From contig JBBIJE010000013.1 of assembly GCA_037446155.1 (NCBI GenBank), positions 17,008 through 81,007 of the forward strand: DNA of 64,000 nucleotides. The letters run 5' to 3'. The notes beneath the pieces were generated by a model, which had not been told where the DNA came from, searched no databases, and saw nothing but the letters and a program-made list of their open reading frames with translations. The position numbers and the translations under genes were made by a program. The stretch is from Myxococcales bacterium (lineage in GTDB: Bacteria; Desulfobacterota; Binatia; UTPRO1; JBBIJE01). Of the stretch, positions 29,741 through 63,375 are shown one piece after another; the stretch's first letter is position 1; each line of letters starts with the position of its first letter.

Positions 29741-29843
29741 CGTGGGGCCGCGTGGGGTCACCGCGTGGCCGCGTGGGGTCAGGTCTTGCCATGCAGCGGG
29801 GTCAGGTCTTGCCATGCAGCAGGGTCGGATCTTGACGTGAAGC
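29741..29843 (+). repeat. REP-like repeat cluster A (3 x 23 bp tandem units plus CGCGTGGGGTCA units)
   Basis: GGGGTCAGGTCTTGCCATGCAGC occurs at 29775-29797 and 29798-29820. A variant AGGGTCGGATCTTGACGTGAAGC is at 29821-29843. Short CGTGGGG(TCA) repeats precede them. Confidence 0.85.
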
Positions 29844-30158
29844 GGCCCGCATCCAATCAGACGGACGTTGCGCGGGAGCGGGTACCAGCGAATGCGCTAG
29901 GCGCGGTTGCGAACGTGCGCGGGGTGCCCATTTGCCCGCTTCTGCGTGCGCAAGGGCGGCGAGCTGGGAGGGCCGACGGTAGAAGGGCCGCGAGGCGGAG
30001 AGCGGCAAGACGAAACACAAGACGCTGGCGCGGTGCTCAGTGGACAAGTGAAAAACAAAAGCCCCCATGCAAGAGGCGGTGCGCCAGCTTGACAAGCGGC
30101 GAGTTAAAAGATAGAGGGCGCGGACCGCGAAACGGAGTCGCGGAGAAAGGGGAAGAGC

Positions 30159-32958: not shown

Positions 32959-33107
32959 GCGGTTTACACGCGATGCGTGGCTCCTCCCGCCCGCGTGTCG
33001 TTGGCCAGAAAGACGGCGCCACCCTCGGCGCTCCCCTCGTGCCACCATGGCGGCCAGGCACACGGCGTGCAACCGGGGTCACCAAACGGGGGTACCCGGG
33101 GGGTCAC

Positions 33108-33357
33108 GGGGGGTCAGATCTTGACGTGACGGGGGGTCAGATCTTGACGTGACCCTATGCTGCCTTGGTCGAGTCGCTTGCCGTGAAACTTTGTTGCCTC
33201 GATCGAGTTCCTCCCGCACCTTCCACCCGCACCGGCCCTGGGCGGGTGGTGCAACCGGCCGGCGGGGCGCCCCCTGCGTCAGACTCAAAAGACGAGAGCG
33301 CTGGCGCGATCGGCGACACCCGAGGAGCGCAGGCGCTTCAAGGCAGGACCCGACCCC
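33108..33357 (+). mobile_element. MITE/REPIN-like non-autonomous element, copy 1
   Basis: The left end is 2 x GGGGGGTCAGATCTTGACGTGAC (33108-33153). The right end is the inverted unit CTTCAAGGCAGGACCCGACCCC (33336-33357). Internal segments are homologous to copy 2. Confidence 0.6.
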
Positions 33358-33486
33358 GGCGCTGGTGACCGCGGGGTCTGACCCCGCGACAGTCGAAGAC
33401 ACCGGCTTGCGCCGCGATACTCGGATCGCGGAAGCGACCCCGCCCGAGCCCGCAGGCGTTTGTCGGTGGTATTATACTCGTGTATC

Positions 33487-33987
33487 ATGAGGCATATGGC
33501 CAAGGCAGTCGAGCGGTTTCTGGAACAACTCTCGACGCAGGCGCAGGCTTTTTACGGAGCGCGCCTTGTAAGCCTTGCCGTCTTCGGTTCCCACGCCGCT
33601 GGCCGGGCGGGGCGCCGCTCCGATTTCGACCTCCTCATCATCGTGACGCAAGCCGCGCCGAGACGGCGCCAAAGACTCGACGAATTCGAGGAGCTCGAAG
33701 CGCGGTTGGGGCCGGCATTGGAGAGGCTGGAGAGGAGCGGCTGGTCCGAGGATCTAAGCCCGGTCATCCGAACCCGGGAGGAAGCCCAGGGCTTTTCTAT
33801 CCTATATCTCGACATGACGGTGCACGTGCGCATCCTGTTCGATCGCGAGGGATTTCTCGAGCGCCGGCTGGCGCGGATGCGCGGGGAGCTCGAGCGCCTG
33901 GGTCCCGAGCGGCGCGAGTTCGGCCGGCATTGGTATTGGATACTCAAGAAAGATTACCGGCCGGGCGAGGTTTTCGAAATCTCGTGA
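33487..33987 (+). CDS. nucleotidyltransferase-domain protein (MNT-type antitoxin candidate)
   Basis: Carries the minimal NTase motif VFGSHAAGRAGRRSDFDLLIIV. Confidence 0.8.
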   Translation: MRHMAKAVERFLEQLSTQAQAFYGARLVSLAVFGSHAAGRAGRRSDFDLLIIVTQAAPRRRQRLDEFEELEARLGPALERLERSGWSEDLSPVIRTREEAQGFSILYLDMTVHVRILFDREGFLERRLARMRGELERLGPERREFGRHWYWILKKDYRPGEVFEIS

Positions 33988-34421
33988 CGAACATCAGGCT
34001 TGGGAGAAATTATATCGAGCGTGCCCGTGGGCGGCTTCAGTTCCTTCGCGGGATGGCGCAGGTTGGGCTTCACGCCAATGCCGTCCGAGGTAGTCAGGAA
34101 GTAGTCGCGTTGGCGTTAAAGGGGATTGCGCGGGTCGCGGGCCTCGATCCTCCGCGGGAGCACGACGTGGGGAAGTTCCTACTTGCCAATCGCGCGGCCC
34201 TACCGGCCTGTCTTGCGGGCAGGCGTCCGGAGATCAGCCGGATGTCGCGGCGCCTTAGGCGCGAGAGGGAGATTGCTTTTTACGGGGACGAAGATTTCAT
34301 TCCCTCCGAGGAATATGCGGCGGAGGACTCCGAAGAGGCGATCGCTTCGGCGGAGGCTGTCGTTGCCTGGGTGGAGGATGGGACGCGGGAGCTGGGTGTG
34401 ATCGGGGCCGGGAAGCGGTAG
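33984..34421 (+). CDS. HEPN-domain protein (HepT-type toxin candidate)
   Basis: The GTG overlaps the NTase stop as GTGA. All-helical with a PREHDVGKFL (R-x-H) region, in the classic position downstream of an MNT. Confidence 0.65.
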   Translation: MTNIRLGRNYIERARGRLQFLRGMAQVGLHANAVRGSQEVVALALKGIARVAGLDPPREHDVGKFLLANRAALPACLAGRRPEISRMSRRLRREREIAFYGDEDFIPSEEYAAEDSEEAIASAEAVVAWVEDGTRELGVIGAGKR

Positions 34422-34451
34422 ATGGGTTACACTACCAGGGGGTCACTACCA

Positions 34452-34677
34452 GGGGGTCAGGTCTTGACGTAACGCTTTCTTGCCTCGGTCGGGCTGCTCC
34501 AGCACCGCCGCGCGCCGGATCGCGCAAAGCGGCGGCCCGGGCGGCTTCTGCGCAAGCTGGCAGCGCAGCGTCTGCGCTAGACTCACAAGACGAGAGCGTT
34601 GCCGCGAGTGGGCGTCCCGGAGGGGCGCAGGCGCTTCGAGGCAAGACCTGACCCTGCTTCAAGGCAAGATCTGACCC
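34452..34677 (+). mobile_element. MITE/REPIN-like non-autonomous element, copy 2
   Basis: The left end is GGGGGTCAGGTCTTGACGTAAC (34452-34473). Right ends are the inverted units CTTCGAGGCAAGACCTGACCC and CTTCAAGGCAAGATCTGACCC (to 34677). 34572-34654 matches 33274-33356 at 66 of 83 positions in an ungapped hand alignment. Confidence 0.6.
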
Positions 34678-34680
34678 TCC

Positions 34681-34790
34681 GATGATGACCCCCCGATGAC
34701 GCCCCGACGTCAAGACCTCGTCAAGATCTGACCCCGCTTCACGTCAAGATCTGACCCCCCGCCTGACCCGTGACCCCCCGCCGGCCCCTG
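34681..34790 (-). repeat. REP-like repeat cluster E (reverse-orientation units)
   Basis: CGTCAAGACCTCGTCAAGATCTGACCCC (34708-34735) and GCTTCACGTCAAGATCTGACCCCCC (34736-34760) are followed by TGACCC repeats. These are reverse complements of the cluster A/B units. Confidence 0.8.
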
Positions 34791-35203
34791 CCGCGCGGTC
34801 CGGCCGGCGGGTCGCCGTTCAAGCGAGCGGCTATCCCAGTGCGAGGTAGCCGAGGCGCCCGGGCGGGGGAGTCGAATTCTCGCCCGAGGTTAACGGGCCC
34901 CCAAAGCGTCTGACTGATGTCCCTAGCCCTCACGAGGACTTGACTTTTTAGTCGGCCTTGGGTAGGCAATAGCTCGCTCTCGCAGGCTCGCGGAAAGCTG
35001 GCGAGGGCGGTGGTTGAAGGAAGTGGATAGCGGGAGGAGACGCGGAAGGAAGAGGGGCGGCCATCCTTTCTCGGCTTTCTGATCATCCGTTCTCTTCCCA
35101 AAGCGCTCGGTCACGAGCGGTTTGCTAGGCGCGCCGCTTTCACTTTCGCAGAGCGAGTTGGGGTGGTAGCTGTGGGCTGCGCGCAGAGGGAGGCGCAAAG
35201 CCG

Positions 35204-35596
35204 GTGAGCCGGCCGAGGAGGATCGCGGCGAGCGGGCTACTGTTGCATGTAACCGCTCGTTCGGGCGAAGGGCGCGCGGCATTCGAGTCGGAGGAGGACA
35301 GGCGAGCGTTTCTTAGCCTCCTTCGCAAATACGAGCGCCGCTATCGGCTCAGGCTTCACTCGTACGCGCTCCTTCCCGACCACTTGCACCTCCTCCTTTC
35401 CAGTGATCTCGACGGCGGCATCTCCCGGGCGATGCGGGATATCCTCGGAAGCTACAGTAAATACTACAACCGCAGCCGCAACCGGCGGGGGTCCCTGTGG
35501 GACGGGAGGTATAGGTCGGAGGTGGTGGGGGGGGCTTCACTGCACCAGGCCCGTTTGCGGCTATGCCAGACCGGCCGAGCGGTTGGCAAATGTTAA
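35204..35596 (+). CDS. REP-associated tyrosine transposase-like HUH (IS200/Y1) protein, apparently C-terminally short
   Basis: RRIAASGLLLHVTARSGEGRAAFESEEDRRAFLSLL...LHSYALLPDHLHLLL contains the HUH motif; GSLWDGRYRSEVV follows. It ends after 130 aa, and the usual Y-I-x-x-N-P-V catalytic tyrosine region is not recognisable. Confidence 0.7.
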   Translation: MSRPRRIAASGLLLHVTARSGEGRAAFESEEDRRAFLSLLRKYERRYRLRLHSYALLPDHLHLLLSSDLDGGISRAMRDILGSYSKYYNRSRNRRGSLWDGRYRSEVVGGASLHQARLRLCQTGRAVGKC

Positions 35597-62230: not shown

Positions 62231-62899
62231 ATGGAGGAGGGGATGATGGCGGATTACGCGCGGGCTTACCTCGAGCGGACGGCCGACATAGCTATGCGAA
62301 TTCCGACGGATGCGGCAGCCCGGATCGTCCGGGTTCTGATCGAAGCTTGCGAGGCGGGTCGAACGGTTTTCGTCATGGGGAACGGGGGTAGCTCGGCAAC
62401 GGCCACCCACTTCGCCAACGACCTTGGCAAAGGAGGAGTGAGCGGGTTTCCCAAACGCTTCAAGGTGATTTGCTTGAACGATAACATGGCGCTCGTGACC
62501 GCATGGGCCAATGACACTGACTACCAGCGAATCTTCGCCGAGCAGTTGCGAAACTTCGTGGAGCCGGGAGACGTAGTCGTGGGCTTCAGTGGAAGCGGGA
62601 ATTCTCCCAATGTACTGAATGCCATCCGGCTTGCCAAGGAGAGACGTGCCGTTACGGTGGGTTTTACCGGACTGCCTGGCGGGCTCTTGAGGAATCTCGC
62701 CGACCACTGCCTGGTGGTGCCGAGTACCGATATGCAGCACATCGAGGATCTTCACCTGGTCGTGGCGCATCTCATCTACAGCCAGATACGGGACGAGTAC
62801 ATGCGGCCACTCGAGGCGGCCCTTGCCGGCCGAGACGGCATCCCCCTCGAACCCCTGATCCAGCCCGCCCGGAGCGCCCGGGGTCAGGTCTTGAAATGA
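62231..62899 (+). CDS. gmhA: SIS-domain phosphoheptose isomerase with repeat-derived C-terminal extension
   Basis: VFVMGNGGSSATATHFANDLGK, GFSGSGNSPNVLNAIRLAK and IEDLHLVVAHL. The last codons and the stop lie inside repeat cluster F. Confidence 0.85.
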   Translation: MEEGMMADYARAYLERTADIAMRIPTDAAARIVRVLIEACEAGRTVFVMGNGGSSATATHFANDLGKGGVSGFPKRFKVICLNDNMALVTAWANDTDYQRIFAEQLRNFVEPGDVVVGFSGSGNSPNVLNAIRLAKERRAVTVGFTGLPGGLLRNLADHCLVVPSTDMQHIEDLHLVVAHLIYSQIRDEYMRPLEAALAGRDGIPLEPLIQPARSARGQVLK

Positions 62900-62960
62900 C
62901 GCACGCGCCCGGGGTCAGGTCTTGAAATGACGCGGGGTCAGACCCCGGCGGTCTAACCCC
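62875..62960 (+). repeat. REP-like repeat cluster F
   Basis: Two 30 bp-spaced units CGCCCGGGGTCAGGTCTTGAAATGACGC (from 62875 and 62905) are followed by the near-palindrome GGGGTCAGACCCC. Confidence 0.85.
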
Positions 62961-63299
62961 GCGGGGCACATTAACGGCCTTTTCGAGGGTCGATGACATA
63001 ATGTCCGACGTCGCAGGCGAAATCTCGCTCGCCTCCCCTAACGACAGGGCACATTACCGCGCACGCCGCAGCTTCTGGCCGGCTTGCGACGTCCCATTTG
63101 CGCCTGCGTCCCACTGCCGAGGGCTCGGGGATCGCATGGCACGCGCGGGTTTCGGCTGTCAACACGCACTGCGGCATCGCGGGACGGCTGGAGGTGGCTT
63201 GCAGCAACGCCGGGGAGCGGCGTCGATACCAGTCAGCCAACGAAGTCGAAATCCGACGCGCCGTCAGTGGCCGGCGGCGGCCGGGCGGGGCTGGGAGCA

Positions 63300-63375
63300 G
63301 TAGCAAAATTCCGGGGTCAATTCCGGGGTCTGACCCCGGGGTGGCGGGGTCTGACCCCCGCGAGGCGACCCCGCG
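63300..63375 (+). repeat. REP-like repeat cluster G
   Basis: CCGGGGTCAATTCCGGGGTCTGACCCCGGGGTGGCGGGGTCTGACCCCCGCG has repeated GGGGTCTGACCCC near-palindromes. Confidence 0.75.

Follow-up and report, generated by a model that had tools for sequence, protein, structure and literature searches.

The DNA analysed here, a 64,000-nt stretch of contig JBBIJE010000013.1 from the Myxococcales bacterium assembly GCA_037446155.1 (hereafter the window), contains two adjacent genes, for a nucleotidyltransferase (NTase) and a HEPN-domain protein, which are enclosed by clusters of short repeat units. A preliminary description of this DNA proposed that two look-alike elements in direct orientation bracket the gene pair, and this arrangement is borne out, with element sizes of 230-290 bp. 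Pfam likewise confirms that the only genes between the two copies are an NTP_transf_2 protein (33496-33987, + strand, 8.8e-08), i.e. a minimal nucleotidyltransferase (MNT-type, GS...DxD) and putative antitoxin partner, and a HEPN protein of family PF05168 with a GTG start (33984-34421, + strand, 4.1e-14), the putative toxin partner.

The repeats themselves form an ordered mosaic. On the left, half-units consisting of truncated local flank followed by GGGGTC(A) occupy 33074-33109 (+), with GGGGTC at 33075 and 33100, and precede the first full unit. Two tandem forward terminal inverted repeat (TIR) units of the a-type, GGGGTCAGATCTTGACGTGAC, follow with a 23-nt period at 33110-33152 (+) and make up the left end of copy 1 as well as the left arm of an outer inverted repeat. 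The internal block of copy 1, denoted spacer X1 (33153-33334, +), is non-coding, low-copy and lineage-specific, and 69% identical to its counterpart X2 in copy 2. Inspection places a degenerate inverted c-type unit (core GGGGTCGGGTCCTG, tail CCTTGAAGC) at 33335-33357 (-). A second degenerate inverted unit of copy 1, overlooked in the preliminary description, lies at 33364-33391 (no strand assigned); its counterparts in alignment are the second inverted units of copy 2 and of a sister-strain contig (L118, see below), and it holds the half-site palindrome CGCGGGGTCTGACCCCGCG (33370-33388). The middle of the mosaic is unique DNA with a promoter-like site and the NTase and HEPN genes. To the right, copy 2 starts with the half-unit CTACCAGGGGGTCA, present twice and running into a single forward a-type unit (34432-34475, +; the unit itself at 34453-34475), and continues with spacer X2 (34476-34631, +, delimited by alignment to X1), two inverted c-type units, GGGTCAGRTCTTGCCTYGAAGC (34632-34678, -), and two closing half-units, TCATCGGRGGGTCA, recognized by inspection (34679-34699, -). 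These are followed by one partial and two full inverted a-type units (34700-34761, -), which provide the right arm of the outer inverted repeat, and finally by outer-right half-units in which GGCGGGGGGTCA is repeated (34762-34790, -). The best inverted repeat of the region pairs 33107-33149 with 34719-34761 (43 nt, 95%), and because of this outer repeat the mosaic is taken to span approximately 33074-34790, beyond the end originally assigned to it.

The similarity between the copies was reproduced in detail. The ungapped comparison of 33274-33356 with 34572-34654 again gives 66/83 identical positions, and the segment starting TTGCCTCG matches at 22/27 positions (TTGCCTCGATCGAGTTCCTCCCGCACC at 33194 versus TTGCCTCGGTCGGGCTGCTCCAGCACC at 34480). 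Inspection and unit matches also agree with the earlier observation that both copies start with forward and end with inverted units. A gapped alignment within the window covers 33177-33389 and 34463-34682, with 69% identity over 227 nt (E 6.6e-24). Neither of the two copies, nor the outer bracket, is flanked by a target-site duplication beyond chance: the best direct repeats there measure 4-7 nt, compared with 5-7 nt in random controls, and belong to GGGGTC units. Rfam returned only one tRNA-Ala for the whole window, at 19.97 kb, and the idea of a tRNA fragment or attachment site at 34762-34921 was tested and dropped.

TIR units in the window and in other genomes

All full units in the window open with (G/A)GGGTC(A/G)G. 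The 17-nt unit GGGGTCAGATCTTGACG has 13 matches in the window at ≤3 mismatches, compared with 0.23 expected, and none of 100 shuffles reached 13. The units are gathered in four clusters within the 64 kb, all of them intergenic. A single unit can form only a weak imperfect hairpin, and the two ends of each copy can pair into a hairpin. Outside the mosaic, cluster A (29741-29845, +) consists of half-units and three forward units, two of the b-type ending in TTGCCATGCAGC and one of the a-type. This cluster had been considered a possible third, decayed copy, an assignment that did not hold: it has neither inverted units nor detectable homology to the internal block X. Cluster D (62880-62965, +) contains two forward d-type units ending in TTGAAATGACGC with a 31-nt period, followed by GGGGTCAGACCCC-type palindromes, and further half-site palindromes occur at 63300-63375. 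The half-site palindromes (CGCGGGGTCTGACCCCGCG and relatives, at 33370-33388, 62934-62948 and 63320-63365) are perfect or near-perfect, being composed of two GGGGTC half-units head to head, and resemble the self-complementary TIR type of Stenotrophomonas. Unit clusters (34.7 kb and 62.9 kb) are also located at both edges of a surface-polysaccharide cluster at 35913-62189, of lower GC content (0.57-0.62 vs 0.63-0.67), which encodes a Wzx-like flippase, methyltransferases, GT4 glycosyltransferases, asparagine synthase, UDP-glucose dehydrogenase and an initiating sugar transferase.

At the cluster edges, 1-3 truncated repeats with a 12-24-nt period stand ahead of the outermost unit, and each joins 7-10 nt of the local flank to GGGGTC(A). 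In the window these are found at 33074-33109, 34432-34452, 34679-34699, 34762-34790 and 29741-29774, and elsewhere in the numbered loci retrieved from databases (L004, L010, L013, L020, L037, L044, L127, L147 and others). A strict test found the signature ahead of 40 of the 283 outer units, across phyla. Its flank-derived part is not the same from copy to copy, nor at the two ends of a single element, and the edge half-units may record a transposase cut site around GGGGTCA^.

The unit start, GGGGTCAG, fits the published TIR motif GGGGWSAS. According to Di Nocera, De Gregorio & Rocco (2013, PMC3733652), TIRs share this motif, TIRYTs (TIR-associated tyrosine transposases) are RAYT-like genes flanked by TIRs, the whole unit being termed a TIRtron, and moderately abundant TIR families occur as dimers or clusters. 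Quentin et al. (2018, PMC6006769) assign 20 of 26 TIRYTs, every one with a C-terminal helix-turn-helix (HTH), to TnpA_REP subclass 2.1 and report no REP-like repeats near subclass 2.1 genes in that survey. Tandem doubling of units and duplicated outer half-units are not described in the text available for either paper, and 13-mers of the 14-nt core are absent from their searchable text; a literature search for unit 13-mers returned only unrelated primer sequences.

A scan of one genome per species for two tandem cores (GGGGTCAGRTCTTG, 8-20 nt, GGGTCAGRTCTTG) revealed the tandem-unit pattern at no fewer than 117 genome loci (≥117) in many phyla; among the matches listed are Beta- and Gammaproteobacteria (Pseudomonadota), Thermodesulfobacteriota, Nitrospirota (Nitrospiraceae), Acidobacteriota, Planctomycetota, Bacillota, Eisenbacteria and others. 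Most listed loci are convergent clusters of forward and inverted units with spacers from ~10 to ~200 nt. Minimal forward/inverted dimers with spacers of 10-60 nt are common in the family (L010, L037, L022) and are found also in the sister strain. A gene for a Y1 protein of ~281-285 aa is located beside the units in 21 of the 117 listed loci (tblastn), and most of those 21 genes have forward units ahead of them and inverted unit(s) at the 3' end (L004, L006, L008, L076, L109). The associated proteins combine a Y1_Tnp (IS200-like HUH) domain, a catalytic-Tyr helix RYIVLNPVRA and a C-terminal HTH of the HTH_23/HTH_28 type, and their best NCBIfam model is the REP-associated tyrosine transposase (77-81 bits vs a cutoff of 80). 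Likewise, a metagenome scan with the window's a-type unit yielded 19 loci, four of which hold an intact TIRtron (L127, L132, L140, L141). A base-by-base reading of L127 shows that its forward unit GGGGTCAGATCTTGACGTGAC, which flanks an intact TIRYT gene, is identical to the a-type unit of the window at 21/21 positions. The same core, with 1-2 changes, recurs at loci that were found by routes other than the DNA pattern, namely a TIRtron on a Legionella adelaidensis plasmid found by protein search (GGGTCAGGCCTTG) and L146, reached via a neighbouring CMD/AhpD-like protein (GGGGTCGGATCTTG); thus the conservation of the core is real, if overstated by the design of the genome scan. Plasmid-borne TIRYTs are rare, with one full-length match in 72,556 plasmids.

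In several TIRtrons (L127, 11014-11110 on the minus strand; upstream of the gene in L006, L076, L078 and L109) the forward unit supplies a -35-like TTGAC(G/A), with a TAGACT/TAGAGT/TAAACT box 17 nt on and the TIRYT ATG 6-8 nt further. This spacing suggests that the forward unit carries a promoter for the TIRYT gene and gives rise to a leaderless mRNA. In others (L008) the leader is longer and includes a Shine-Dalgarno sequence.

The genes bracketed by TIR clusters elsewhere include SIR2 plus MiaE, a short-chain dehydrogenase, a Ser/Thr kinase and an AbiEii pair. Among 150 open reading frames next to clusters, Y1_Tnp is the commonest family and yet accounts for only six; two encode ParE, three HTH_3 proteins, and the rest are diverse. 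A specific link between TIR clusters and toxin-antitoxin (TA) genes was rejected in view of this diversity. The AbiEii toxin gene and its DUF6922 partner, located between two TIR clusters in a Bacillota metagenome-assembled genome (L051, 3345-4840), form the only other TA-like pair among the bracketed genes examined.

Copy number and folding of spacer X

The preliminary description classified the full 230-250 bp element as MITE/REPIN-like. This is right in kind, as the inverted ends are multi-copy and tied to a RAYT-like Y1 family; the full-length element, conversely, is not the repeated entity. Spacer X has no significant match in the rest of the window, the 117 listed genome loci or the 19 metagenome loci (nhmmer, blastn), and an X-specific gapped pattern had 0 matches in a scan of metagenomes. 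In the metagenome run labelled X2 (a run name, distinct from spacer X2), which contains a sister strain, the X block has a summed depth of 9.3 from two contigs. In the same run the a-type tandem reaches a summed depth of ~145-168 on 21-25 contigs with different flanks, and single-copy flanks have a depth of ~5.5. Since the depth of the a-type tandem is far above that of both X and single-copy DNA, the multi-copy entity is the unit or dimer, at ~25-30 copy-equivalents of the unit in the sister-strain run. The X-bearing dimer, with two copies in the window and 1-2 in that run, is a rare long-spacer variant that is low-copy and lineage-specific. Further a-type tandems of the run agree to within 0-9 differences, and because of this family-wide near-identity the 95% outer inverted repeat of the mosaic is not special to its own pair of arms.

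The gaps between X1 and X2 are 11, 2 and 1 nt long. Indels of these lengths break any reading frame, and X is therefore non-coding; a coding function was rejected on the same grounds. The possibility that X is an internally deleted TIRtron was also rejected, as X1, X2 and the X element of L118 align with the L127 TIRtron no better than shuffles do; a match of GCTAGACTC between X and that TIRtron was treated as chance.

It had further been suggested that the conserved right half of the element, closed by a CTGCG...CGCAG stem, is a structured RNA. In its fullest form this reading states that the right half of X (~33274-33334 and 34572-34631) serves the TA operon as a 5' leader in copy 1 or as a 3' stabiliser or terminator in copy 2. 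The segment is indeed the stretch over which X is best conserved (66/83), each of the three available copies can form the stem, and copy 2, which starts ~10 nt past the HEPN stop on the sense strand, has a better fold than its shuffles (z -3.4). Stabilisation of mRNA by REP-type elements located downstream of a gene is also known (background in PMC3733652). Nevertheless, copy 1 does not fold better than shuffles (z -1.75), its position is upstream of the promoter-like site of the TA genes, Rfam gave no match for the region even at E≤1, and X is missing from all TA homologue loci examined. In the consensus fold of the three available X elements it is the forward end that pairs with the inverted end, with a covariation term of +0.47. 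Of the four compensating pairs, two keep the left inner TTGCCTYG complementary to the c-type tail, one falls in the pairing of the outer arms and one on the left side of the spacer. The CTGCG...CGCAG stem occurs unchanged in 3/3 copies, contains none of the compensating pairs and is for this reason uninformative. In combination, the empty Rfam search, the invariant stem and the covariation term do not support a structured RNA, and we consider a role of this kind in the TA operon extremely improbable.

The gene pair and its locus in a sister strain

The HEPN start overlaps the NTase stop by 4 nt, and the same overlap is seen in homologous pairs. The NTase gives a weak MntA_antitoxin match (24.4 bits vs a cutoff of 60), and the HEPN protein belongs to PF05168 and not PF01934; no Rx4-6H motif was apparent by eye in its 145-aa sequence. 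The promoter-like site upstream, TTGTCG-17-TATCAT (33460-33488, +), is a consensus match only and is situated in unique sequence outside the repeats. A gap of 7 nt separates the end of its -10-like TATCAT from the NTase ATG at 33496, and because of this short distance the TA transcript may be leaderless. The database starts of both genes differ from those chosen here: the NTase is called as 173 aa from a GTG at 33466, which would place the promoter-like site inside the gene. Homologues, which are numerous (63-74% identity), mostly 163-165 aa long and usually paired with HEPN, favour a start at 33496 or 33487.

NTase-HEPN homologues at 70-74% amino-acid identity occur in at least three other contexts for which DNA is available, all of them without units. 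The neighbouring genes are different each time: Patatin and Abhydrolase for P0016 (L119-L121, HEPN gene called, cut by the contig end in L121), copper-related genes and PIN-MazE for P0026 (L122, HEPN gene called), an acetyltransferase for P0007 (L123-L126, no HEPN gene called) and, for P0005, a protein with no DNA loci and with a HEPN gene called, Uma2, an RHS-type toxin and a HepT-MNT pair. None of the eight homologue loci with DNA contains family-like units at ≤3 mismatches, X is absent from every one examined, and DNA similarity to the window is limited to 33505-34375. As the homologue loci are unit-free and the DNA homology stops at the coding region, the NTase-HEPN pair travels without these repeats.

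The locus was also compared between metagenome runs. In run X1 the TA genes are present at 100% identity. In run X2, both flanks are covered and the depth is zero over 33504-34338; the sister strain in this run is ~94% identical in DNA of the right flank and ≥95% identical for most matching contigs. The contig L118, recovered from run X2 through an orthologue of the Y1 remnant described below, has the order alpha/beta-hydrolase gene, half-unit, two forward c-type units, reversed X, inverted a-type unit, 19 nt, and the shared right flank, which begins at approximately window position 34940. Its X element is 83% identical to copy 1 and 82% identical to the right part of copy 2, and is a mosaic that is copy-1-like at the left and about equally near to both copies at the right. 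The left-flank contig of the sister strain ends inside the same forward unit, at 33131. A presence/absence difference of the TA pair in metagenomes, which the preliminary description had proposed to look for, was observed in so far as the pair is present in run X1 and not in run X2. A clean presence/absence of the bracketed block or an empty site was not found; the sister strain instead carries the hydrolase gene and an inverted X. In L146 (1-230, minus strand) a TIR dimer, consisting of GGGGTCGGATCTTGCATTG, a spacer of ~110 nt and then inverted units, lies beside a CMD/AhpD-like gene in the same position as in the window, the protein being 79% identical. A repeat cluster can therefore stay in place through long divergence, as has been reported for REPINs. 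The repeat clusters at the locus are thus old, and, L118 being taken as continuous with the left flank, the content between the flanks is strain-variable.

These comparisons bear on the possibility that the TA pair is cargo of a composite TIRtron-like unit, in which case all 1.65 kb of the block could be mobilised by a TIRYT in trans. Such a layout does have counterparts in the data: the outer arms (33110-33152 and 34719-34761) form a 43-nt inverted repeat that is 95% complementary; the succession of half-units, two forward units, two inverted units and half-units is the one seen around TIRYT genes; the pair is absent from the sister-strain run; and the AbiEii pair of L051 is a second TA-type pair between TIR clusters. 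However, a-type tandems are near-identical family-wide (0-9 differences among contigs), all homologue contexts with DNA are unit-free, genes between clusters are mostly ordinary, and neither a target-site duplication nor, in the sister strain, an empty site or clean excision was found. The composite-transposon or cassette layout that the preliminary description drew for the TA module is thus not supported by the homologue contexts, the unrelated genes between TIR clusters elsewhere or the boundaries, and we regard transport of the pair as cargo as decidedly unlikely. As such clusters sit between ordinary genes in many bacteria, the pair is more likely a bystander.

The direct X repeats could also be products of recombination, formed either by a circular molecule of X and the TA pair integrating into a resident X or by insertion into the centre of a resident palindromic TIR dimer, which would make the site a hotspot or cassette slot. 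The sister strain retains the forward unit of the left flank (up to the contig end at 33131) and, 19 nt short of the right flank common to both strains, an inverted a-type unit; next to the latter it has the hydrolase gene and a single inverted X, and no TA pair. The mosaic nature of the L118 X element and the TIR dimer at the same left-flank site in the relative with the 79%-identical CMD/AhpD-like protein also fit such a process. Conversely, the contiguity of the sister strain's left-flank contig with L118 is presumed, an inverted X is not predicted by simple integration or deletion, and the 69% identity of the spacers implies an old event. A circular or excised form of the block was not seen in the contigs, and overall this origin appears unlikely. 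A related proposal, to which we give somewhat less credence, is that the interval between fixed inverted TIR clusters (forward on the CMD/AhpD-like side, inverted a-type on the Y1-remnant side) is a cassette slot whose contents are swapped between strains. The slot would contain X-TA-X in this strain and the hydrolase gene with an inverted X in the sister, and exchange may take place by TIRYT-mediated movement of genes bracketed by TIRs or by breakage and recombination at hairpin-forming dimers.

Interpretation and relation to known systems

The window contains a single Y1 gene, a truncated Y1/HUH (RAYT-like) gene of 130 aa at 35204-35596 (+; Pfam Y1_Tnp 3.7e-12), in which the HUH motif is kept and the catalytic-Tyr helix and HTH are missing. 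It scores 43.7 bits against NCBIfam REP_Tyr_transpos over profile positions 2-114 of 146, is 30-36% identical to the first 107-117 residues of TIRYTs and ends just before the catalytic-Tyr helix. No C-terminal TIRYT remnant was found downstream in any frame, and the unit upstream has the wrong orientation for a TIRtron, a non-canonical position. The sister strain keeps the 130-aa frame (L118, 1731-2123) with 93% amino-acid identity, the same stop and a crude pN/pS of ~0.27 from 24 differences. The gene probably represents a decaying or domesticated remnant and cannot be the active enzyme. A comparison of the L127 TIRtron with the source metagenome runs returned only short TIRYT-like fragments of the conserved core, which are not assignable to this organism.

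Taken together, we consider it probable that 33074-34790 is a mosaic of TIR units of the TIRYT/TIRtron family around a bystander MNT-HEPN pair, and that the units were spread or homogenised in trans by a TIRYT. Each copy would be a TIR dimer, composed of forward a-type unit(s), a spacer X of ~160-180 nt, inverted c-type units and half-unit edges. A TIRYT encoded elsewhere in the genome would bind the units through its HTH and/or HUH domain and, on the model of IS200/IS605 TnpA and the E. coli enzyme TnpA_REP, would nick single-stranded DNA at the hairpin-forming ends and join it again, and the units and dimers would in this manner be spread or homogenised in trans. The two X-bearing dimers, at 69% identity, would be paralogues derived from an old local duplication or a nearby re-insertion. 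The MNT-HEPN pair would merely be situated between them, with its own promoter-like site and an independent history, and the repeat-rich DNA would make the spot strain-variable.

Several points weigh against this explanation. An intact TIRYT gene is absent from the 64-kb window, the sole Y1 gene being the Tyr-less 130-aa remnant, and trans mobilisation in this organism is consequently unproven. To our knowledge, an action of a TIRYT on TIRs, i.e. binding, cleavage or mobilisation, has not been demonstrated experimentally for any TIRYT. The flanking dimers share a low-copy spacer in direct orientation, which goes beyond random placement of a high-copy repeat, and the interval between the same left and right flanks differs in the sister strain, leaving room for a cassette-like process. 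Moreover, the genome scan demanded two exact cores, and the apparent invariance of the core stems in part from this search design.

By sequence likeness the repeats are assigned to the TIRYT/TIRtron family; they are REPIN-like in logic and BIME-like in layout, and neither REP nor DDE-type miniature inverted-repeat transposable elements (MITEs). They resemble described TIRtrons (PMC3733652; PMC6006769) in the GGGGWSAS-type start, in the ~283-aa Y1/HUH transposases with C-terminal HTH and in occurring as intergenic singles, dimers and clusters at moderate copy number. The dimers of the window differ in their long (160-180 nt), low-copy and lineage-specific spacer, in their unlike a-type and c-type tails, and in that the window lacks an intact TIRYT. 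With the REPIN-RAYT system (Bertels & Rainey 2011; Nunvar et al. 2010) and E. coli TnpA_REP/REP they have in common short inverted units organized as intergenic hairpin doublets and a Y1/HUH transposase gene flanked by its own units. Unlike REPs, the window units have no GTAG or CGTC tag and are not strong palindromes, the enzyme associated with TIR units has an extra HTH, the unit core is common across phyla whereas REPs are lineage-specific, and copy numbers are in the tens, not hundreds. A REPIN proper consists of two inverted REPs with a short spacer; copies 1 and 2 have spacers of 160-180 nt, compared with 10-60 nt in the minimal dimers of the family. The mosaic of unit subtypes in alternating orientation with conserved linkers is reminiscent of enterobacterial bacterial interspersed mosaic elements (BIMEs), X being comparable to the L motif of BIME-1, although the unit family is a different one, the linker X is low-copy and there is no evidence of binding by IHF, gyrase or Pol I.

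MITEs and Tn3-derived inverted-repeat miniature elements (TIMEs) are similar in size (200-300 bp), non-coding character and inverted ends, which begin with GGGG as do Tn3-family inverted repeats. The window elements differ from these in lacking target-site duplications, in having ends of tandem sub-repeats and not a single 38-bp repeat, and in their association with a Y1/HUH and not a DDE enzyme. A Tn3-type inverted repeat, with ends starting GGGGTC, was considered and rejected, since the ends here consist of tandem sub-repeats and the gene associated with them is Y1/HUH. Finally, the gene pair resembles type VII HepT-MntA modules in gene order, with a small nucleotidyltransferase followed by the HEPN gene, in the 4-nt overlap and, like mobile TA modules, in being kept as a pair in many contexts. 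It departs from them in the HEPN family (PF05168 and not HepT/DUF86, PF01934), in the lack of an Rx4-6H motif by eye and in the MntA score (24 bits vs 60), and its role as a TA system is putative.

We know of hardly any work on TIRYT/TIRtron repeats since they were catalogued in 2013 and reclassified in 2018. Relative to the available text of PMC3733652 and PMC6006769, the features that may be new at the family level are the near-invariant 14-nt core across phyla, tandem doubling, duplicated half-units and a possible unit-borne promoter. The 14-nt TIR core is nearly unchanged across many phyla, along with a 45-60% identical transposase, and tandem doubling of the units is typical. In the uncultivated subsurface lineage studied here, an MNT-HEPN pair occupies a strain-variable spot marked by unit clusters, and for annotation this means that genes flanked by such repeats should not be called composite transposons. 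If the locus were indeed a cassette slot, TIRYT repeats would be vehicles or hotspots for the swapping of accessory genes such as TA modules. The conserved core, the doubled units and the half-units provide clear substrates for a first biochemical test of a TIRYT.

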